Shown piece after piece: positions 6,215 through 58,063 of a DNA stretch of 64,000 nucleotides. The notes under the pieces were generated by a model. The model was not told the DNA's origin. It searched no databases and was given only the letters and a program-made list of their open reading frames with translations. The position numbers and the translations under genes were made by a program. Origin of the DNA: SAR202 cluster bacterium (GTDB lineage: Bacteria; Chloroflexota; Dehalococcoidia; Lucifugimonadales; Australimonadaceae); contig VGZX01000002.1 of the NCBI GenBank assembly GCA_016872415.1, forward strand, positions 19,447 through 83,446. Reading direction: 5' to 3'. Every line of letters starts with the position of its first letter. Positions within the stretch are counted from its first letter, which is position 1.

Positions 6215-7135
6215 CTATCGTACCTTTTGGTTCTTCAGGTCGAACACGTCCTTCGCCAGCGTCGCCATCATCTGAAATGCGCGCTCGTGGTCCTTCGTCC
6301 CCTCGATGTCGGGCCAGTTGTACCAGTCGATCACGATGTACGGCACGCCGAGCGCCTCCAGGCCCTTCACGTCCTCGCGGACCTGCTCCAGCGTGCCGGT
6401 GCCCATGCGGCGGTCGGCGGCGGTGATCGGCTCCTTCGTGATGTGCATGCCGATGCGGACGTTCACCTGCGGCACGGGCCGCCCGGCGGCCTCGGCTTCG
6501 GCCTTCAGCAACGGGAGCCACTGGTCGCGCAGGCTGGCGAGCGACACGCGGTTGGGGTGCCACGCATCGCCGTACTTCACCGCGCGCTTCACGGAGCCTT
6601 CGCTGTTGCCGCCGACCCAAATGGGCGGGTGCGGCTTTTGGCGCGTCGCGATGGCGGAGATGCGGTCGAACTTGATGTAGCCACCGTGGTGCGTGACCTC
6701 GCCGCTGCCCGTCCACAGCGCCTTCATCGCGGCCAGCATGTCGCTGGACCAGGGACCCCGCTTGTTGTGCGGCACGCCCAGCGTCGCGAACTCGTCGGCG
6801 GCGTTGCCGATGCCCACGCCGAAGATGAAGCGCCCGTTGCTGAGCTGGTCGAGGTTCGCCACGTGGCGCGCCAAGAGTATCGGGTGCCGGTAGGGCAACA
6901 CGATGATGGTGGTGCCGAGGTCGACGCGCTTGGTCTGTCCGGCGAGCCACGAGAGCGTGATGAGAGCGTCGTAGAACGGCTCCGGGTACCGCTCGCGCAC
7001 CGATGGCGTGATCGCGACGTGGTCGGAGATGAAGATGCCGTGGTAGCCGATGCCCTCGACGACCTGCCCCCAGCGGGCGACGGAGTCGGGCGTGATGCCG
7101 GGACCGAAATTCAAGAGGTTGACGCCGACCTTCAC
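6215..7135 (-). CDS. Luciferase-like (LLM class) F420-dependent oxidoreductase
   Basis: VKVGVNLLNFGP ... FISDHV ... LGTTIIVLPYRHPILLARHVANLDQLSNGRFIFGVGIG is the typical LLM/TIGR03619-like pattern. I place the start at GTG 7135 (GGTGGGGG 7 nt upstream), not at the ORF-track start 7249. Confidence 0.8.
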   Translation of the reverse strand: MKVGVNLLNFGPGITPDSVARWGQVVEGIGYHGIFISDHVAITPSVRERYPEPFYDALITLSWLAGQTKRVDLGTTIIVLPYRHPILLARHVANLDQLSNGRFIFGVGIGNAADEFATLGVPHNKRGPWSSDMLAAMKALWTGSGEVTHHGGYIKFDRISAIATRQKPHPPIWVGGNSEGSVKRAVKYGDAWHPNRVSLASLRDQWLPLLKAEAEAAGRPVPQVNVRIGMHITKEPITAADRRMGTGTLEQVREDVKGLEALGVPYIVIDWYNWPDIEGTKDHERAFQMMATLAKDVFDLKNQKVR

Positions 7136-7207
7136 GTATGAGCCCCCACCGAGTGTAGTGTGCCGGTAGTATACGGGGTGAGCGCCCCCACCATCGCCCT
7201 TCGAGCC

Positions 7208-7921
7208 ATGATGACGTTCGACGAAGTGATCACGTATTTCGAGGCGCACGCCAAGCCGCGCAACCGCGAAGGCATGGCGCGGTACGGCATCGACGTCTCC
7301 AACACCTACGGCCTCAACACTCCCGACTTACGGGGGCTGAAGCGGCGCATCCAGCGCGATCACGCCCTGGCGCTCCGGCTGTGGGAGCATGGCTCGCGGG
7401 ACGCGCGCCTGCTCGCGGCGATGATCGCCGACCCAATGCAACTGTCCGCCGCGCAAGCAGACAGTTGGGTGGCCGGCCTCACCAGTTGGGACGTTTGCGA
7501 TGGCCTTTGCTCCGAGTTGCTGGCGCGCATGCCCCGCGCGTCGGCAAAGGCGCTGGAATGGGCGGCCGACGACCGCGAATTCTTCAAGCGCGCGGGCTTC
7601 ACGGTGATGGCGCGCATCGCCGTCAGCGACCGGGCCGCGCCGGACGAGGCTTTCGAGCCGTTCCTGGCGGCGGTGCTGGCCCACGGCGCCGACAGCAGCA
7701 ACTTCGTGCGTAAGGCCGTGAGCTGGGCGCTACACCAGATCGGCAAGCGCGACGAGCATCTGCGCCGGCGGTCGCTAGCGACGCCGCGCTCGCTGCTCGC
7801 GAGCGGCGAACGCGAGGGCCGGTGGGCCGCGATGGATGCCATCCGCGAGCTGGAGGGCGAGGCGGTCATTCGGCGGTCGGGCGCGGCTACAGCACGGCGC
7901 GCGCGATCGTCCAAAGGTTGA
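7208..7921 (+). CDS. DNA alkylation repair (AlkD-like HEAT-repeat) protein
   Basis: ...HAKPRNREGMARYGIDVSNTYGLNTPDLRGLKRRI...LWEHGSRDARLLAAMIADP...FVRKAVSWALHQIGK matches the DNA_alkylation repeat family pattern. The start is taken at the ATGATG at 7208. Confidence 0.7.
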   Translation: MMTFDEVITYFEAHAKPRNREGMARYGIDVSNTYGLNTPDLRGLKRRIQRDHALALRLWEHGSRDARLLAAMIADPMQLSAAQADSWVAGLTSWDVCDGLCSELLARMPRASAKALEWAADDREFFKRAGFTVMARIAVSDRAAPDEAFEPFLAAVLAHGADSSNFVRKAVSWALHQIGKRDEHLRRRSLATPRSLLASGEREGRWAAMDAIRELEGEAVIRRSGAATARRARSSKG

Positions 7922-8932: not shown

Positions 8933-10066
8933 TCAACCGGTGGTGAGGCCGTGCGATGGGAAAACGAGCCTCCGCAGCTCCTCGACCTGCTGGCGGGCGA
9001 ACCGCCGCGTCTGGTCCACGATGTCCGGGTCGATGTCGGCGTCGGCGTCGCGTAAGCGCTCGCTGGTCAGGAAGGCGTCCGCGCCGGCCGGCAGCTCGTC
9101 GGGCCATTCGCGGCCAAGCATCACGCCGTAGGCCATGGTCCAGCAGCGAGCGACGACGTCAAGGTCGTAGCCGCCGCCGCCGAACGCGAGCCACGGCAGG
9201 CCCAGGCCCGCGAAGTAACGCACGAGGTCGATGTAGTCCCGGCTCGTGAGCGCCAGGTGCGAGAGCGGGTCGCGGCCGTGCGCGTCGACGCCGAGTTGGG
9301 TCGCGATCACGTCCGGCGCGAATGCGCGGAGCAGGGGCGGCACCACGGCGTCGAACGCCTCGCGGTACACGGCGTCGCCGGTGTAGGGGAACAACGGCAG
9401 GTTCACCGAGAAGCCCCTACCCGCGCCCTCGCCAAGCTCGGCGACCTCGCCGGTGCCGGGGAAGAGGTAGCGCCCCGACTCATGCAGGGAGATGGTGAGC
9501 ACATGAGGGTCATCGTAGTAGGCGGCTTGCACGCCGTCGCCGTGGTGGGCGTCGATGTCGATGTAGGCCACGCGCAGCCCGCGCCGGCGCAACACGTTGA
9601 TGGCGACGACGGCGTCGTTGAATATGCAGAAGCCCGACGCGCGCCCGGCGGCGGCATGGTGCAGCCCGCCGGCCGGCGCGAATGCGACGCGCGCAAACTT
9701 GTCGGCGACCAGCTCGGCCGCGCGCACCGAGGCGCCGCACGCCAGCAGCGCGGCCTCGTACATGCCGGGATAGACGGGATTGTCGCCGAATTTGGCGAAC
9801 CCATGGCGCTCCGCATCCCTGGTGGATGCACCGTTGCTGTAGGCGCGCACGGCCTCAACGTAATCGCGCTCGTGGAACGACAACAGCTCTTCCTCGGTGG
9901 CGGGCCGAGGCTGGATGAGCCGCGACGCGCCGCCGTCGAACGCGCCGTATGCCTTGGCGAGGGCATAGGTGTATTGGAGCCGCACGGGCCGCATGGGGTG
10001 GCCTTCGCGCAAGACGTGTTGAGACATCCGCGGGTCATAGACGTAGGCGGCGAACTGGTCAGTCAC
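8933..10066 (-). CDS. Histone deacetylase-family protein (AcuC/acetoin utilization-like)
   Basis: Class I HDAC motifs: GGLHHA, FCIFND and DIDAHHGDGVQAAY. Confidence 0.85.
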   Translation of the reverse strand: MTDQFAAYVYDPRMSQHVLREGHPMRPVRLQYTYALAKAYGAFDGGASRLIQPRPATEEELLSFHERDYVEAVRAYSNGASTRDAERHGFAKFGDNPVYPGMYEAALLACGASVRAAELVADKFARVAFAPAGGLHHAAAGRASGFCIFNDAVVAINVLRRRGLRVAYIDIDAHHGDGVQAAYYDDPHVLTISLHESGRYLFPGTGEVAELGEGAGRGFSVNLPLFPYTGDAVYREAFDAVVPPLLRAFAPDVIATQLGVDAHGRDPLSHLALTSRDYIDLVRYFAGLGLPWLAFGGGGYDLDVVARCWTMAYGVMLGREWPDELPAGADAFLTSERLRDADADIDPDIVDQTRRFARQQVEELRRLVFPSHGLTTG

Positions 10067-10085
10067 GTGCGATCCCCTGGTTGGG

Positions 10086-11030
10086 TTAGAGCCAATCCCG
10101 CTTCCAGAAAAACGCGAGCATGCCGATGGAGAGCACGGCCATGCCCCCCACGATGGAGGCGAACGCGAACATGCTGCCTTGGCCGGGGAGCCCGACGTTC
10201 ATGCCATAGAGGCCGGTGATCACCGTGAGAGGCAGCATGATGCTGGCGAACAGGGTAAGCACGCGGATGACCTCGTTCGTATGCTCCGACGTCACGGCGG
10301 CGTGCGTTTCCTGCAGCCCTTCCGACACCTCTTTCAGCTCTTCCAGCTCGACCCAGATGCGGCGCATCTGGTCGGCCTGGTCGCCGAAGTAGACGCCGGA
10401 CTCCAGCTTGAGGAAGGGGAATTCCTTGTTCTCGAGCGTCTCCAGCACTTGTATCTGTGGGCGGACGACGCGCCGGTAAGAGAGGATGTCGCGACGCGCG
10501 ACGGCCAACTCTTGCAGCACGCCGCTGGTGCGCTCCAGCATCTGCGACTCCACGGTGTCGACGTTGGAGATGAGCTTGTTGAGGATAGGACCGCAATAGT
10601 CGACCAGGCGGTCGAGCAGCGTGTAGAGCAGGAAACCCGATCCGTGCCCCATCGCGTCTTTCCGTACCTCCGCGCTCACCAGGGCGTCTTGAAACAGCTT
10701 CGTGAGCGGGCGCAAATCGCCGCTGTGCACGCTGACGATGTAGGTGGGGCCGGCGAACACCGCGACCTGGCTTGGACGGGTGAGGCGCTGGCGGGCGTCG
10801 TAGAGGGGGAAGTGGAGCACCATGAAAACGTAGCTGGGGTATTCGTCCAGCTTGGGCAGCTGCACGCGCGAGCGGCAGTCGTCGAGGTCGAGCGGGTGGA
10901 ACGGGAAGTGGTTCTTCAGGTACTCCATCTCGGCGAGGCCGGGATGGCGCAGGTCATACCAGGCCAGGCCGCCATGCTCGACGACCTGGATGTTCAGCTG
11001 CTGGGTGCCGGTGACGTCGATGGTGGCCAC
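10086..11030 (-). CDS. corA: Magnesium/cobalt transporter CorA
   Basis: 314 aa. A cytoplasmic domain is followed by two C-terminal TM helices carrying the signature YGMNVGLPG (GMN motif). Confidence 0.9.
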   Translation of the reverse strand: MATIDVTGTQQLNIQVVEHGGLAWYDLRHPGLAEMEYLKNHFPFHPLDLDDCRSRVQLPKLDEYPSYVFMVLHFPLYDARQRLTRPSQVAVFAGPTYIVSVHSGDLRPLTKLFQDALVSAEVRKDAMGHGSGFLLYTLLDRLVDYCGPILNKLISNVDTVESQMLERTSGVLQELAVARRDILSYRRVVRPQIQVLETLENKEFPFLKLESGVYFGDQADQMRRIWVELEELKEVSEGLQETHAAVTSEHTNEVIRVLTLFASIMLPLTVITGLYGMNVGLPGQGSMFAFASIVGGMAVLSIGMLAFFWKRDWL

Positions 11031-51866: not shown

Positions 51867-53429
51867 CTAGTCGCCCTTCATAAGCGCGTCGCCGACCTCG
51901 TTGATCGCGACCGACTCGATGGCGATCTCCGGGGCGTGGACGATCTCGTCGGCGTTCCAAACCACCGTCGGCTTCTTCTCGCGCCCAATGCCGATGATGC
52001 CGTTCAATATGCGGTGCGTGTTGTCGTTCAGGCGCACCGCGTTGGGCTGCAGCGGCTTGCCGAGGCGGCCGTCTTTGATGAGGTAGGAATCGCCGATGAC
52101 GGTGCAGGTGAAGTCACCCTGCGTGATGCCGTTGATGGGGTACGTGTACCAGATGCGGCCGATGTAGATGCCGTCGCCGACGCGGCGCAACAGCTCGTCG
52201 GTCGGCACCTCCTCCGTTCCTTCCACCATCACGTTCGTCGCGGCGATGCCCGGTGGCTGCGTGAAGTGCCGTCCGCCGCCCATGCCGAAGCGGAAGCCGT
52301 TGCGCGGCGCGATGGCCGCCACGTAAAGGTTGGGATCGACTCCCAGCTTCCTCGCGCCCTCGGGATCGTGCAGCGCGCGCTGGTGCTCGTACCAGTTGGC
52401 GAGCAGCCCCACCAGGCGGCCATGCCGGATGAGGTCGGTGCGACCTGTGGGCAGGCCTTCGTCGGTGACCCCCTTGCTCGCCGCGAGGCCGCGCAGCGCG
52501 CCGTGGTCGTACATGCTGAGCGTGCGCGACGCGATCTGCTTGCCAAGCTTGCCCTGGAACGGCGAGGCCCATGCGTGGAACAGCCCCAGGCTGAGCCCCG
52601 GCAGCACGAGGTTGTTCAGGATGTCGGTCACCGGTTGCGGCCCCAGCACCACCCGGTATTCACCCTCCGGTATCCGCACTCCATCGGCGGCGCGAATCGC
52701 GTTGCGGGCGGCATCGTCGCCGGGGCCGTCGCCGAAGCCCGCAAGCGTGCCGCCCACGTGCCAGCCGGTGCCCTTGGTGTTGCGCCGCTCGACCATCGAC
52801 GTGGCGACGGACGAGATGAGGGCCGTCTCGTCGCCGATCACGGCGCCCTCGACGGTGTTGCCCACCGCAACGCGCTCTTGAATCACCATCATGTCGCCGG
52901 TCAGAATCAGCCCCAGGTCCTTCACGGTATCGGGCGACCTCGACCACTCCAGCAACGCCTCGGACGACTGGAATACCTCCAACGCCCCATCGACGACGCG
53001 CCAGCCGAGATCGACCAGGCCGGCGTCGTCCAGTTTCATCAGGGCAGGGTCGTGATATTTGATGAGCGAGCGTCGCGGCTTCGCGCCCATGCGCGGCAGC
53101 GACACGAACTCAGGGTCGGGCACCGCGCCGCGGCGGGCCTTGTCAAGCGCTTGCGCGACGCCGGCCAGGGTCATGTCGCTCGGCTCGCTGCCGAACCCCT
53201 GCTTGATGCCGCCGCCGTCGCGGAACACGACGCGTAGCCCCACGCCGAACGACTCGTTCGACTTTGGCTCCTCGACGCCGTTGGATGGAATGTGCGACGT
53301 GAACGCCAGCCGCGTGATGAGGTTGGCGTTCGCGGCCATGAAGACCTCCGCCTCTTGCACGTCCGGCACGGTCCGCAGATAGGCGATGGCGTCGGCCACG
53401 GCTCGCTTCAGTTGAGGCACGGTAAGCAT
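51867..53429 (-). CDS. TldE/PmbA-type partner of the TldD metalloprotease (no HExxxH)
   Basis: 520 aa with TldD/PmbA-family features (...GVGLRV..., a C-terminal beta-rich region). I found no HExxxH motif. The ATG overlaps the rmuC stop (TAATG). Confidence 0.75.
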   Translation of the reverse strand: MLTVPQLKRAVADAIAYLRTVPDVQEAEVFMAANANLITRLAFTSHIPSNGVEEPKSNESFGVGLRVVFRDGGGIKQGFGSEPSDMTLAGVAQALDKARRGAVPDPEFVSLPRMGAKPRRSLIKYHDPALMKLDDAGLVDLGWRVVDGALEVFQSSEALLEWSRSPDTVKDLGLILTGDMMVIQERVAVGNTVEGAVIGDETALISSVATSMVERRNTKGTGWHVGGTLAGFGDGPGDDAARNAIRAADGVRIPEGEYRVVLGPQPVTDILNNLVLPGLSLGLFHAWASPFQGKLGKQIASRTLSMYDHGALRGLAASKGVTDEGLPTGRTDLIRHGRLVGLLANWYEHQRALHDPEGARKLGVDPNLYVAAIAPRNGFRFGMGGGRHFTQPPGIAATNVMVEGTEEVPTDELLRRVGDGIYIGRIWYTYPINGITQGDFTCTVIGDSYLIKDGRLGKPLQPNAVRLNDNTHRILNGIIGIGREKKPTVVWNADEIVHAPEIAIESVAINEVGDALMKGD

Positions 53430-54559
53430 TAGCTATCCTTCTCGTCCGATATGTCCGCCGCGACGAGCGCCAGGTCGGGCTCCTCGCCGGGCGCGACGTC
53501 GATGCCGCGTTGCTGGCGCAGCGCCTCGATCCGGTCGAGCGGGCGTTGGAGCCGACGCTTGCGCGGACCCACCGCTTCGTCGAAGGCCTTTTGCGTCGAC
53601 GCCAGCCGCCTGCCGATCAGCTCCAGGCTGCCGTTGAATTTGGCCCACTCCTCGTTGAAGCGGCCGATCAGCGCGACGATCTGCTCCGACTCCCGTTGCA
53701 GGGCAAAGGTGTCGACCGCCTGCCGCACGACGGCGAGCACGGCGAACAGTGTCATCGGCGAGCAGCAGATCACGCGGCTCCGCAGCGCCGCATCGAGCAC
53801 GCCGGTGTCCTGCTCGTGGATGAACGCGTACAGCGACTCGTTCGGAATGAACAGCAGCACGTAGTCAACCGTGCCACCCTCGGGATCGATGTATTCGCGC
53901 CCCGTGACCTCGCGCACTCGCGCGCGCACGTCGCGCAGAAACGCCGCCTTCCGCGCCTCGCGATCGCCGTCGGACTGGGCGGCGAGGTAGCCGAGGTAGT
54001 TGTCCAGCGGAAACTTCACGTCCATGTTCATGCGGAGCCCGCCGGGCAGCAGGAACACGAAATCAGGACGCGAGCCGGCGCCCTCGACCACCGCCTGCTT
54101 GCGGTAGTTCACGCCCTCGACGAACCCGATGAGCCGCAGGATGTCGTCGGCCATGCGCTCGCCCCACTGGCCGCGAGCGCGCGTGCTGCTCAACGCCTCG
54201 CGCAGCGTCGAAGTGGTGGTGGTGAGCGCGGCGGTCTGCTCGCCGACGAGCTTCAGCTGCGTACTCAATGCGCTGAACTGGCCCGCCCGCTCCTTCTCGA
54301 CGCCCTGCACGAAGGTCGTGACCTGTTGCAGTGTCGCGCCCATCTGCTCAAGCCGCTGGTCGATGAGTGCTTTCTTGCCGGTGAGGTCCGACGCGGCTGC
54401 CTCGGCCTGGCGGGCGAAGCGTTGCTCGGCGAGCGTCAGCAGCTGCTCCGAGGCGCGGGCGAGGTCGGCTGACTTGGAGCCCTGCCGACGCAGCGCCATC
54501 GCCAGCGCGATGGCGAGCAGCCCCACCGCGACCGCGAGCACGACGACGGCGGCTTCCAT
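53429..54559 (-). CDS. rmuC: DNA recombination protein RmuC (PD-(D/E)xK-like nuclease domain)
   Basis: An N-terminal TM and a coiled coil are followed by ...SRPDFVFLLPGGLRMNMDVKFPL...VDYVLLFIPNESLYAF...VICCSPMTLFAVLAVVRQ, which is colinear with E. coli RmuC. Confidence 0.85.
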   Translation of the reverse strand: MEAAVVVLAVAVGLLAIALAMALRRQGSKSADLARASEQLLTLAEQRFARQAEAAASDLTGKKALIDQRLEQMGATLQQVTTFVQGVEKERAGQFSALSTQLKLVGEQTAALTTTTSTLREALSSTRARGQWGERMADDILRLIGFVEGVNYRKQAVVEGAGSRPDFVFLLPGGLRMNMDVKFPLDNYLGYLAAQSDGDREARKAAFLRDVRARVREVTGREYIDPEGGTVDYVLLFIPNESLYAFIHEQDTGVLDAALRSRVICCSPMTLFAVLAVVRQAVDTFALQRESEQIVALIGRFNEEWAKFNGSLELIGRRLASTQKAFDEAVGPRKRRLQRPLDRIEALRQQRGIDVAPGEEPDLALVAADISDEKDS

Positions 54560-54561
54560 TA
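54552..54561. repeat. Left copy of the 10-bp direct repeat GCTTCCATTA flanking the foreign ORF
   Basis: An exact 10/10 match with 56156-56165. It spans the rmuC start codon and the foreign ORF stop codon. Confidence 0.9.
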
Positions 54562-56163
54562 GATGCCCTTCTTCGATCCGGGTGACGGTAAATGCATTTC
54601 GAATAAAGCAGTAAGAAAACCTTCCCTACCAATAACGAAGAATGTCCTGTAGATATTCCAGACACCCTTCGATGGCACATCTGTCTCGTGCTCTGAGATG
54701 TTGCGCTTGCTAAGAAGTTCTGTTTCTAACCATCGCAGCGGCCCATCTCGAAATTGGAGCACCTTTGCATTCGTTAGTCCTTTCTTGCGTAGCAGCTCAC
54801 CAAATCTGGAGGTTCGAAAAAGAAATGCCCAGTCTGCCAGTGTAGCTTTGGCCGGTAGCGATGCTCTAACAGGAGGCTGCTTGGATCGCCTAGTTTTTAG
54901 ATGTTCCGTGAGTGCTCTGTCTGATAATAGAGAACCAAAGAACAGATCAAAGATTGCTTCTGTTACCGTCTGCAGGCAGTTGAGAGCCATTGCCGCCGGT
55001 GTCGGTTCTTCAGCAAATACAATGTCGTCTGCAGCGATAAAGCGATCGCGAGCTCGCTGCGGGAATAGATTCCACATCTGGTCGTTGACAAAATAGCGTC
55101 TCAGCCGCTGTTCTGCTGCTCGTTTCGCTGGCCCAGGCTCTTGAGAATTTAGTACTTCCTTTAGGTATGGGTAAATATTCTCTCTTGAGAGTAAAGACTT
55201 ATGCTTAGCCACTGCGGCTGCAATTTCCAGTTGCCAATTCGGATCTATATCGTCTTCGTTCGCTTCCCTCATGGCGTCTAGGAAATCCAGAACCTTGCGG
55301 CCCCCTGCCTCATCCGTAAGTGCCCTATCTTCAACCAATTCGTAGCCTTGCCACAGATAGCTAAACGCCATGTCCCCGGCATTGAGGGGCTCGTTATTAG
55401 ATGCCAGCGGGTCAGTTGTGGACTCGTCCCAATCAATCAATGACGGTATGAATTTGATTGGCCATCGATACTTCACAGTTTGGCCGTAAGCGTCAATATC
55501 CATGAAGCTTGTGAACCGCACAAGAGTCGGTAACGAAAAGCTAGGTGGGTGCTCTGCTTCGTGCTCATAGTGACTGAAGTCATATCTAAAAGCCGGGTCC
55601 CACACTTCCATTGTCTTCCGTATCGCAGCAGTTGCATGCTCTAGACTACCAACGTGATCTTTGTTGTATCGCCTGAGATCCAGTAGTGCCCAGTGCGCCC
55701 AGCCAGCCAATGCGTGGGCACCCAATTCATTCACAGGGAGCTCATGGGTAAGGTCGTTACCTCCCCACTCAGGCTGCAATATCGCTAGCCCAGAGAGAAC
55801 TCGCTCCCAAGCGGGCTCGCACCTTTCGGTTGGTTGGTAGTAATCGATGTGCATAAAGCACTGGCCGATGACGCATGCTAAATGGGCATTGGCAAGTAAG
55901 CGCTCAGGAGAAGGCTTCTCATCCGGTTGCCGTCTGCTAGCGTGCTCCTCAAGCTGAAAAATATGATTAGCTAGCCATTCGTAGTCATCGGTCGAGGGGT
56001 ACGTTCCCTCGTCCGGGCGATGAACGATCCATGCGAGATCGATAGCCTGACTTACAAACTCCGACTCCGATGAACTTTGTTCTCTGTAGAGAGCAATGAA
56101 AGCACGCCCCTCGGATCGATGCTCGCGGCTTGGTGGTAGGTGCGGAATCGGCAATGCTTCCAT
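54559..56163 (-). CDS. Compositionally foreign hypothetical protein (534 aa) with a C-terminal R-N-x3-H (HEPN-like) motif
   Basis: A long uninterrupted ORF in a region far lower in GC than its surroundings. The ATG at 56163 lies 10 nt after the tldD stop (GGGGG in between). Its stop overlaps the rmuC start (TAATG). There is no TM segment or signal peptide. KRNISEH is encoded at 54688-54708. Confidence 0.8.
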   Translation of the reverse strand: MEALPIPHLPPSREHRSEGRAFIALYREQSSSESEFVSQAIDLAWIVHRPDEGTYPSTDDYEWLANHIFQLEEHASRRQPDEKPSPERLLANAHLACVIGQCFMHIDYYQPTERCEPAWERVLSGLAILQPEWGGNDLTHELPVNELGAHALAGWAHWALLDLRRYNKDHVGSLEHATAAIRKTMEVWDPAFRYDFSHYEHEAEHPPSFSLPTLVRFTSFMDIDAYGQTVKYRWPIKFIPSLIDWDESTTDPLASNNEPLNAGDMAFSYLWQGYELVEDRALTDEAGGRKVLDFLDAMREANEDDIDPNWQLEIAAAVAKHKSLLSRENIYPYLKEVLNSQEPGPAKRAAEQRLRRYFVNDQMWNLFPQRARDRFIAADDIVFAEEPTPAAMALNCLQTVTEAIFDLFFGSLLSDRALTEHLKTRRSKQPPVRASLPAKATLADWAFLFRTSRFGELLRKKGLTNAKVLQFRDGPLRWLETELLSKRNISEHETDVPSKGVWNIYRTFFVIGREGFLTALFEMHLPSPGSKKGI

Positions 56164-56165
56164 TA
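56156..56165. repeat. Right copy of the 10-bp direct repeat GCTTCCATTA flanking the foreign ORF
   Basis: An exact 10/10 match with 54552-54561. It spans the foreign ORF start codon. Confidence 0.9.
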
Positions 56166-56173
56166 TGCGCCCC

Positions 56174-57742
56174 CTACGGCCCGACGACGCGCGCGACGCT
56201 GCGCATGGTGGGCCCGCCGTTGCTCATGCGCTTGGCCTGCATGGGCTGGCCCTTGCCGCAGTTAGGAATGGGGTACAGGTGGAAATCGTTCCCGACCCCG
56301 TCGACGCGCATGAAATAGTCCTTGGAGTCCGACATGACGGCTCCATCGCGGTACAGCCGCCCAATCTCGCCGTGGTTGATCTCGTATACCTGCTTCGCGC
56401 TGATGCGGAAGTTCTCGCGCGACTCGGAGATCGACGGTATGCGGTGGCCCTTCACGTAATAGCCGTGGTCGATGTCCTTGAAGAGCTCCTCCGGGGGCGT
56501 GTCGCCGCTGACGAAAAAGGTGTTGGTCATGCGGACGAGCGGCACCATCGACGCGTCGGTCGCGACGTAGCCGCCATTCGCCTCGACACCGGCGATCGCC
56601 GCCGTCTGACGGCTGGTGAGGAACTCCTCCAGCACGCCATCGCGGATGTGCCACACGCGCCGCGCCTTCGTGCCCTCGTGGTCATACGGGAAGTAACCGA
56701 AGCCCTCGATGGACGCATCGGAGACGGCGTTCACCAGCGGCGAGGCGATCCGCTTGCCGACCTGCGACTCGCCGAGGTCGTTCAGCAGCCACGATCGCCC
56801 GGCGTAACCCGCCTCCATCTTGAGCGCGCGGTCCAGCTCGACGGGGTGGCCGACGATCTCGTGCACCAGCAGCGTGTTGTAGTGCGGATCGGTAACGACG
56901 GGCACGGGGCCCTCGCTCGACGGCAGTGGCGGCGCGTCGGCGGTCTCGACGGTGACCTTGGTCAAGTCGAGGGCGAAGTCGCGCAGCGACGGCAACTGGA
57001 TCGAGGCGTGGTCGTAGCCGCGCTGGAGCACCTCCCACCCGCGTTGGTGCCCGCTGAAGTCATAGAGCTCCATCGGCCCCGTTTCGCCGTTCGCCATCAC
57101 GAACACGAACGCCTCCGACTGCGCGAACGTGTGGTCGATGTTGGCGCCCTCGGAGGAGCAGTAGAGGTTGCGGATGAGCACCGACGACGCGCCGATGCCG
57201 TTGTAGCGCACGGTGGCGCTAAAGCCGGCCACCGCCTTCGATATCTTCCCGACTTCGGCCGCGATCGCCCCAAGCGACAGCGACCGAGGGTCGATCTCGA
57301 AGATCGCGGGCACGGTGTCGACGTGGGCCCGTACCGGCGCGAGCCGCGTGTCGTAGAGGTTGTCGGCGAGGCGGCCGAAACGCCCGCGCGTCGCCGCCTT
57401 GCGCGCGGCGGACGCCCGCGCCCGCTCGTGGGCGTGCTTGACGCCCTCGCGGACGATGGCGCTCATGCGGTGGACGTCGGCGGTGCCGAGCGTGCGTCCG
57501 AAGTAGCCTGGCGCCACGGCGCCCCCGGACTCGGCGAGCACGCGGACGCCGAACGACAGGCCGCGCTCCTCCTGTGTGCTCTTTGGCGCGCCGTTCTCGG
57601 CGTAGACGCCGACGCCCTCGCTTGCCTCGACGCGGATGTCGCAGTGGAGCAAGCCGGCGAGACGCTTGGCGTAGCCCTTGGCGATCCGGGCGATCGCCGG
57701 GCGGACGCGCTCGATGACTTCGATTCCAACGTGCTCGGCCAT
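56174..57742 (-). CDS. tldD: TldD-type zinc metalloprotease
   Basis: TldD/PmbA family with the catalytic HExxxH present (VHEIVGHPVE). ATG 57742 is preceded by GGGAGGGG; the ORF-track GTG at 57760 is an alternative start. Confidence 0.85.
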   Translation of the reverse strand: MAEHVGIEVIERVRPAIARIAKGYAKRLAGLLHCDIRVEASEGVGVYAENGAPKSTQEERGLSFGVRVLAESGGAVAPGYFGRTLGTADVHRMSAIVREGVKHAHERARASAARKAATRGRFGRLADNLYDTRLAPVRAHVDTVPAIFEIDPRSLSLGAIAAEVGKISKAVAGFSATVRYNGIGASSVLIRNLYCSSEGANIDHTFAQSEAFVFVMANGETGPMELYDFSGHQRGWEVLQRGYDHASIQLPSLRDFALDLTKVTVETADAPPLPSSEGPVPVVTDPHYNTLLVHEIVGHPVELDRALKMEAGYAGRSWLLNDLGESQVGKRIASPLVNAVSDASIEGFGYFPYDHEGTKARRVWHIRDGVLEEFLTSRQTAAIAGVEANGGYVATDASMVPLVRMTNTFFVSGDTPPEELFKDIDHGYYVKGHRIPSISESRENFRISAKQVYEINHGEIGRLYRDGAVMSDSKDYFMRVDGVGNDFHLYPIPNCGKGQPMQAKRMSNGGPTMRSVARVVGP

Positions 57743-58063
57743 GACCCCTCCCTCGCGCACTCGGTTCAGGTCTCTCCGCCGCTAAGCCCGCGACGCGGCA
57801 TGGCAGCGGGCGATACCGCGACGCGGGAGCGGACTTGCCTTCCGCTCGCGCCGCCTCCAGCCACCGGGCCCTGGCGACCCGCGATTCGCGCGGCGCCCGC
57901 TCCGGGGTATCCCCCAATGCCGAACGAACCTCCGAATCGGGGATCGTCGATCTCCTAAAGCGATGTCACCTCGATGCCGAACTCGATGGCGGTATGCCTA
58001 TCCGAGCAAATCACATCGCGGTCGCTCGTTCAATGCGCTGTTTTTCTGACGGCATCGTGGCCC

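Follow-up and report, generated by a model that had tools for sequence, protein, structure and literature searches.

What does a single gene of foreign composition do when its stop codon overlaps the start codon of a nuclease gene, and does this arrangement mean that the two work together? The question is raised by open reading frame (ORF) X, a single gene of 534 amino acids (aa) on the minus strand at 54559..56163 of a 64,000-nucleotide stretch from an SAR202 cluster bacterium (assembly GCA_016872415.1, contig VGZX01000002.1, positions 19,447 to 83,446). This whole stretch is called the window below, and positions given without a locus name are counted from its first letter. The initial annotation, made from the sequence alone, had proposed that the C-terminal part of X is an HEPN-type RNase domain and that X and the adjoining rmuC form a two-nuclease module. 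Our analysis leads to a different picture of the unit and a more guarded one of the domain: we regard X as a candidate horizontally acquired single-polypeptide effector, an HEPN-like RNase of the abortive-infection or toxin type, and assign this reading a probability of about 0.55.

The foreign character of X, already remarked upon at first reading, is confirmed and can be placed exactly. Its GC content is 0.505 in a 68% GC genome, and its GC content at third codon positions (GC3) is 0.50 versus 0.89-0.93 in its four neighbours. At 100-bp resolution, the change in composition matches the ends of the ORF, and X is the sole region of such composition within the window. A protein search identified its product as identical to 'MAG: hypothetical protein FJ318_00935 [SAR202 cluster bacterium]', an entry from a metagenome-assembled genome (MAG). 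The insert is not an assembly chimera, because the same junctions (TldD-end, X, RmuC, PmbA) recur in an independent Logan assembly of run SRR7990526. We found no convincing direct or inverted repeats around X that would mark a mobile element, and there are no tRNA genes within the window.

Relatives of X are few and distant. An exhaustive phmmer scan with X over 1.84 billion representatives yielded 14 remote relatives (E 3e-8 to 6e-4, 27-33% identity to X), which are 192-679 aa long and match only residues ~346-530 of X, always at their own C-termini. A word-indexed search of 5.8 billion proteins matched X alone, and a search of the same type with profile A2, one of two alignments (A1 and A2; 15 sequences) built from X and its homologues, matched P0009 alone, even at E <= 10. 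In all, the family comprises about 15 sequence clusters among the 1.84 billion representatives, each of 1-2 sequences and patchily distributed. A2 is too divergent for pattern design; with the sub-alignments A3 and A4, two scans of metagenome contigs and two of viral contigs returned no relatives. A tblastn search of the family consensus against plasmids and phages gave one match at E = 8, which proved to be a fragment of a trypsin-like peptidase and was rejected. The family is thus very rare and undescribed, being absent from Pfam, PADLOC, and PHROGs.

The candidate catalytic motif of X, R487-N-I-S-E-H492, is encoded at 54688..54705 on the minus strand (cgc-aac-atc-tca-gag-cac, 54705..54688), agreeing to the base with the codons first reported, and is embedded in ...LRWLETELLSKRNISEHETDVPSKGVW... 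In one sequence, such a motif is no better than chance: when X was shuffled, 19.9% of the shuffled sequences contained R[NHQD]x3H and 48.5% contained R[NHQD]x3-5H; for the loose form Rx4-6H, to which X itself has six matches, the figure was 98.6%. It is the conservation among homologues that lifts the motif above chance. In the alignment of X with its 14 homologues, every sequence has R487 and H492 (15/15), all except one have N or D at position 488 (14/15), and E or Q fills position 491 throughout (15/15), so that the family form of the motif reads L-x6-L-x3-R-[ND]-x-[SA]-[EQ]-H. The initial annotation had staked its reading on the conservation of the R/H pair, and the pair has withstood this comparison in every member. 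R353, D379, N395, and E402 are also invariant or nearly so, with N395 present in 14/15 sequences and E402 in 14/15, the remaining one having D in its place. The further invariant residues are hydrophobic or aromatic.

The motif lies in a conserved all-alpha domain at residues ~345-525 (54589..55131, minus strand), the only part of X that phmmer aligns to the 14 homologues. We modeled residues 338-534 with AlphaFold2, using the 15-sequence alignment as input, and obtained a confident prediction (mean predicted local distance difference test score, pLDDT, 82.7; predicted template modeling score, pTM, 0.79) that consists of helices only (345-357, 369-382, 390-414, 416-427, 442-449, 452-460, 465-492, 498-509, and 516-524 in X numbering). 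This bears out the earlier view that the residues ahead of the motif are helical. In the predicted structure, the motif closes the 28-residue helix 465-492, which is followed by a loop (493-497) and the helix 498-509, and a helical insert (416-460) separates the long helices 390-414 and 465-492. The first of these long helices (54922..54996, minus strand) carries both N395 and E402, which are spaced i, i+7 and so occupy the same helical face. A prediction for the whole protein from single-sequence input was uninformative (pLDDT 40.7).

Upstream of this domain, X has a helical region of ~344 aa (55132..56163, minus strand) that belongs to no known family and is presumed to be the sensor or regulatory part. 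With the family consensus, this region gave sub-threshold matches to single TPRs alone (E 0.09-0.13). The N-terminal regions of the longer homologues have the motifs FWxxxxP, YxPDxD, and HxAAxxA in common, to which X aligns weakly. Because these motifs do align, if weakly, we consider X a full-length though divergent family member rather than the product of a chance fusion.

The arrangement in the C-terminal domain resembles that described for HEPN domains. In these, the Rx4-6H motif is found where helix-3 finishes and the loop to helix-4 begins, a polar N, D, or H directly follows the arginine, helix-2 bears a conserved acidic residue, often as Ex3[KR], and helices 2 and 3 are separated by a variable insert (PMC3710099). 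The X family agrees with the motif part of this description, having a conserved R/H pair with N/D488 following the arginine in 14/15 members, and in the AlphaFold2 model the motif spans a helix end and the start of a loop, where the HEPN literature puts the active site. Judged by the same description, helix 390-414 is a candidate equivalent of HEPN helix-2, with E402 as its acidic residue, and residues 416-460 would then correspond to the insert; the position +4 from E402 is not K or R.

Remote profile matches point in a similar direction. In Pfam, the family consensus matches DUF4145 best (E 0.049), aligned over the motif region (consensus residues 119-160 with profile positions 43-81 of 88). 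At E 3.5e-8, the consensus also matches positions 261-353 of the 355-position NCBIfam profile of the HP0729 family, which 12 of the 15 members match individually (best 4.6e-4). Further matches are to positions 285-385 of the 400 in the PADLOC candidate PDC-S26 (E 6.5e-4) and to a stretch within the PLD-like anti-phage protein NF042964 (E 0.009). The family thus links three orphan profiles, namely the HP0729 C-terminus, PDC-S26, and NF042964, which may represent one unnamed domain family. Taken together, we think it reasonably likely that the C-terminal domain of X is HEPN-like, with DUF4145 as its closest match, although membership is unproven.

A number of results weigh against this assignment, and against an RNase effector more generally. 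When all 15 members were searched by hmmscan, no HEPN-clan Pfam family appeared at E <= 10, and the DUF4145 match is one of the consensus sequence only, scoring 14.1 bits against a gathering threshold of 23.1 bits. Nothing was found in PDB sequences with profiles A1 and A2, and no Foldseek match of the domain model in PDB or BFVD scored below E = 1; the chains of Csm6 (5yjc_A), Csx1-Crn2 (8y7g_B), and HepT (7bxo_F) came up at insignificant values (E 4.4-7.4, TM 0.19-0.38). X is the most divergent member and does not match the HP0729 family profile itself, and that family is of unknown function, so the link is no proof of RNase activity (PMC3561388). With respect to a role in defence, we found no family members on phage, plasmid, or viral contigs, X lies outside any defence island in the window, and three syntenic copies in other genomes follow polA at a distance of 30-39 bp, within EamA-PolA-X-orf67-Lit arrays that are surrounded by housekeeping genes. 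Both the profile search and the structural search suggested by the initial annotation thus ended without a significant HEPN match, the former with DUF4145 below threshold and the latter in spite of a confident model. What stands of the proposed HEPN-like domain is a separate, conserved, all-alpha unit of ~180 aa with an invariant R/H pair in the expected place.

Other searches returned little. Direct scans of X against Pfam, NCBIfam, PADLOC, PHROGs, and PDB sequences gave no match, and neither X nor any individual member has a relevant match in PADLOC-DB v2. Comparison by hhalign with one PaREP1 sequence gave a probability of 0.3%, and a regular-expression screen of the 5,643 ORFs from the collected loci found no HEPN genes.

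The scheme that we infer for X combines an HEPN fold and RNase chemistry with dimerization, autoinhibition, and a role in defence. The C-terminal domains of two protomers would pair, and R487, N488, and H492 would form a composite, metal-independent RNase site, to which the long helix ahead of it would probably contribute N395 and E402. The N-terminal region of ~340 aa would hold this site off until a trigger is sensed, and activation would then lead to cleavage of cellular or invader RNA. X itself would have inserted at a site of variable content between ilvD and rmuC, where it is probably read through in a tldD-X-rmuC-pmbA string and not paired with RmuC.

The distribution and surroundings of the family bear on whether X takes part in genetic conflict. 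Mobile or defence genes adjoin about half of the independent homologue contexts. One homologue lies among IS66/IS21 transposases, an integrase, a DUF4435 gene, and a gene for a 1677-aa STAND NTPase; another directly follows a split GmrSD, with transposases nearby; a third lies upstream of an Eco57I/BsuBI restriction-enzyme fusion, at a distance of about 570 bp; and a fourth comes after a ParE toxin-antitoxin pair. The 679-aa homologue P0006 (locus L046) is flanked by genes for Uma2 (PD-(D/E)xK) proteins at 7017-7565 and 9690-10442. A Uma2 gene is also found near P0004 in L047; Uma2 genes are numerous, and this may be coincidence. A further homologue (L045:9210-10801) is split into three ORFs in housekeeping surroundings, and one of the polA-linked copies (L053:1-1516) is in two pieces; these two are either pseudogenes or reflect indel errors in low-coverage assemblies. 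Because the family is rare, patchy, compositionally atypical, and fast-diverging, and because it includes broken copies and mobile or defence neighbours, we interpret X as a conflict gene rather than a housekeeping gene. No partner gene is conserved across these contexts, and we therefore treat it as a solo unit.

The initial annotation had instead coupled X to RmuC, proposing a two-nuclease defence or toxin module that is co-expressed by translational coupling. Its starting observation is accurate: a TAATG at 54561..54557 (54557..54561, minus strand) joins the stop codon of X (TAA) to the start codon of rmuC (ATG), with one base in common. Moreover, no promoter-like or terminator-like sites were found between tldD, X, rmuC, and pmbA, and some defence systems do include RmuC-like domains, the window RmuC matching PADLOC RTasRmuC (DRT) at 9.5e-24. 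The association is nevertheless confined to this locus. Neither rmuC nor tldD occurs in any of the homologue contexts, so that the anticipated enrichment next to rmuC is not seen, and when the window RmuC was used to fetch 40 rmuC loci from species-representative genomes, hmmsearch with the X-family hidden Markov model found no family member in any of them. rmuC itself (53429..54559, minus strand; Pfam RmuC, 1.5e-68) has host composition (GC3 0.89) and is part of a HolA / IlvD / RmuC / ... / SDR (or M24) backbone conserved in related Chloroflexota. In six of these loci (L006, L015-L017, L033, and L036), ilvD lies roughly 120-370 bp upstream of rmuC, and the gap is usually empty. In the window, it is filled by a TldD-like gene and X (54559-57760), whereas in L020 (MAG B83T1L10) the gap at 516-2033 holds an unrelated, lower-GC gene for a 505-aa GHKL/HATPase_c_3 (MORC-like) protein, with the RmuC N-terminus (MEA...) kept. 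Because the backbone is syntenic and the content of the gap differs, rmuC is a resident gene next to a site at which single foreign genes are taken up. The proposed module is thus largely refuted, and we give it next to no chance. The adjacency of X and rmuC is positional, though co-transcription is likely. A pairing of another kind, in which X would be the toxin of an unrecognized toxin-antitoxin or addiction pair with the antidote encoded next to it, would be in keeping with the adjacent antitoxins that HEPN toxins such as HepT-MntA commonly have (PMC3710099), and small ORFs do adjoin some homologues (orf67 in L042, L050, and L053; orf85 in L047; orf82 in L049). These ORFs are mutually unrelated, however, and only orf67 recurs, in the polA lineage alone; no small neighbouring ORF is common across the contexts. 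The window also has no room for a partner, with a 10-nucleotide spacer upstream of X and a stop codon that overlaps rmuC. A conserved small antitoxin was consequently rejected, and we regard an addiction pair as very improbable.

If X acts alone, the question becomes whether it acts in conflict, and by catalysis, at all. The polA-linked copies noted above (L042:10001-11587, L050:10001-11599, and L053:1-1516), which are apparent orthologues, argue for a housekeeping or regulatory factor of nucleic-acid metabolism, such as an RNA-processing or repair-linked protein, that is expressed with DNA-repair genes, as do the position of X directly before rmuC and the copy flanked by Uma2 nuclease genes. 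Housekeeping contexts with a different assigned function had been named from the outset as evidence that would count against the HEPN reading; these three copies have a stable place among housekeeping genes, and other copies lie near mobile or defence genes. Even the syntenic copies, however, are atypical in composition (GC3 0.50-0.61 in L042 and L050 versus 0.81-0.90 in their neighbours) and have not drifted towards the host, and the family protein is 47% identical where the adjoining PolA is 73% identical, indicating much faster evolution. Together with the broken copies, the patchy distribution of some 15 clusters, and the absence of the family from all related Chloroflexota rmuC loci, this makes a housekeeping role unlikely. 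The persistent composition of the polA-linked copies could result from selection for rare codons or from repeated allele replacement; in L052, from a low-GC host (0.33), the family gene is slightly GC-richer (0.38). We consider it a long shot that the family is a new class of single-protein immune or toxin effector, in which an unprecedented helical sensor of ~340 aa controls a divergent HEPN-like RNase, and that its recurrence next to genes of DNA replication and repair (after polA in three genomes, before rmuC here, and between Uma2 nucleases in one case) is functional. Expression or activation would then be linked to DNA damage or to the replication and recombination of invader DNA, and the persistent AT-rich codon usage would be a selected brake on translating a dangerous enzyme. 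As regards catalysis, the C-terminal domain might instead be a helical module for binding, scaffolding, or nucleotide binding, like the HEPN-like domains associated with NTases, in which the R/H pair serves structure or ligand binding and the likeness to HEPN is coincidental. The lack of significant matches to catalytic HEPN families, the low information content of the motif, and the hydrophobic or aromatic nature of the other invariant residues, as packing would suggest, are all compatible with this. On the other hand, HEPN domains without catalysis typically lose the Rx4-6H motif (PMC3710099), whereas here R, N/D, and H are kept across 27-33% identity, together with an N/E pair on a neighbouring helix, and the AlphaFold2 model places the motif at the helix end and loop expected of an active site. 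A non-catalytic domain is accordingly a minority possibility to which we give some weight, and the reading of X as a solo HEPN-like RNase effector is the one that we carry forward.

Several features of the locus and of the homologue loci are recorded here as context. The gene directly upstream of X belongs to the TldD/PmbA family (56174..57760, minus strand; GC3 0.92, host-like), and the 10-nucleotide spacer between its end and the ATG of X contains GGGGG. A second TldD/PmbA-family gene (51867..53429) abuts rmuC. Genes of this family normally form an adjacent pair, and here X and rmuC stand between the two; all four genes (tldD, X, rmuC, and pmbA) abut or overlap, both peptidase genes have host-like GC3, and both are absent at the rmuC locus of relatives. 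A 132-aa antisense ORF inside X (54698-55096, plus strand) has no support and is probably spurious. In the polA lineage, the family copies are followed by orf67, which encodes a small acidic protein of ~67 aa (L042:11644-11847, L050:11687-11839, and L053:1619-1756; 43-48% identity). This ORF occurs only in that lineage and not in the window, and could be either a partner particular to the lineage or a small gene without any relation to the family.

Two more general points emerge from this locus. The close overlap of a gene's stop codon with the start of a nuclease gene does not count as evidence of a functional module, and the ilvD-rmuC gap is a place where these genomes acquire single foreign genes. 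If the prediction for X holds, an undescribed, rare family would join the HEPN/DUF4145-like RNase effectors, among them Cas13, Csm6, RnlA, HepT, and RAZR, and would do so from SAR202 and further uncultured lineages, about whose defence repertoire hardly anything is known.

Among known systems, HepT-MntA has an Rx4H RNase motif at a helix end within a small helical bundle, as does X in the predicted structure. X, however, is four times the size, with a large N-terminal region and without an adjacent MNT gene or conserved partner, and its structural similarity to HepT (7bxo_F) is insignificant (Foldseek E 7.4). The HP0729 family (NF041917) matches the motif-bearing half of the domain with the last ~95 of its 355 positions. 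Only this C-terminal part matches, and the score of 33 bits against an equivalog cut-off of 250 bits signifies a shared domain and not membership. HP0729 of Helicobacter pylori has been reported as rapidly diverging (PMC3561388). It is annotated as 'probable ATP/GTP binding protein', whereas the P-loop implied by this old annotation is absent from the X family.

Single-gene HEPN proteins of the abortive-infection (Abi) and defence types combine an HEPN effector with a family-specific N- or C-terminal module, act alone, and are scattered and compositionally foreign (PMC3710099; bioRxiv 10.1101/2024.01.29.577857). AbiJ, the AbiD/F proteins (Abi_2), and HEC-08 are of this type, and X would share their design. 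Differences are that no member of the X family alone matches any PADLOC model, PDC-S26 being itself only a candidate, and that X lies apart from defence islands. DUF4145 (PF13643), which belongs to the HEPN clan CL0291 and is fused to restriction, helicase, and Abi N-terminal modules, is likewise a helical domain with a conserved R/N/H motif that is found C-terminally in multi-domain conflict proteins; at ~180 aa, the domain of the X family has roughly double the length of the 88-position model.

The last comparison is with RAZR (ring-activated zinc-finger RNase), the closest working analogue, which unites a zinc-finger sensor and a DUF4145/HEPN RNase in one protein that is activated by phage proteins and needs its conserved R and H for defence (PMC13017515). 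RAZR illustrates that a single protein made of a sensor and a DUF4145/HEPN domain can suffice as an abortive-infection system. Neither RAZR nor any PDB chain has a significant sequence or structural match to X, which has no zinc finger, its N-terminal region being ~340 aa of helices from no known family, and whose motif is Rx4H where RAZR has R146 and H154. In overall design, the two are nonetheless alike: each consists of one polypeptide with an N-terminal sensor part, presumed in the case of X, and a C-terminal HEPN-like domain, and each has no partner gene.

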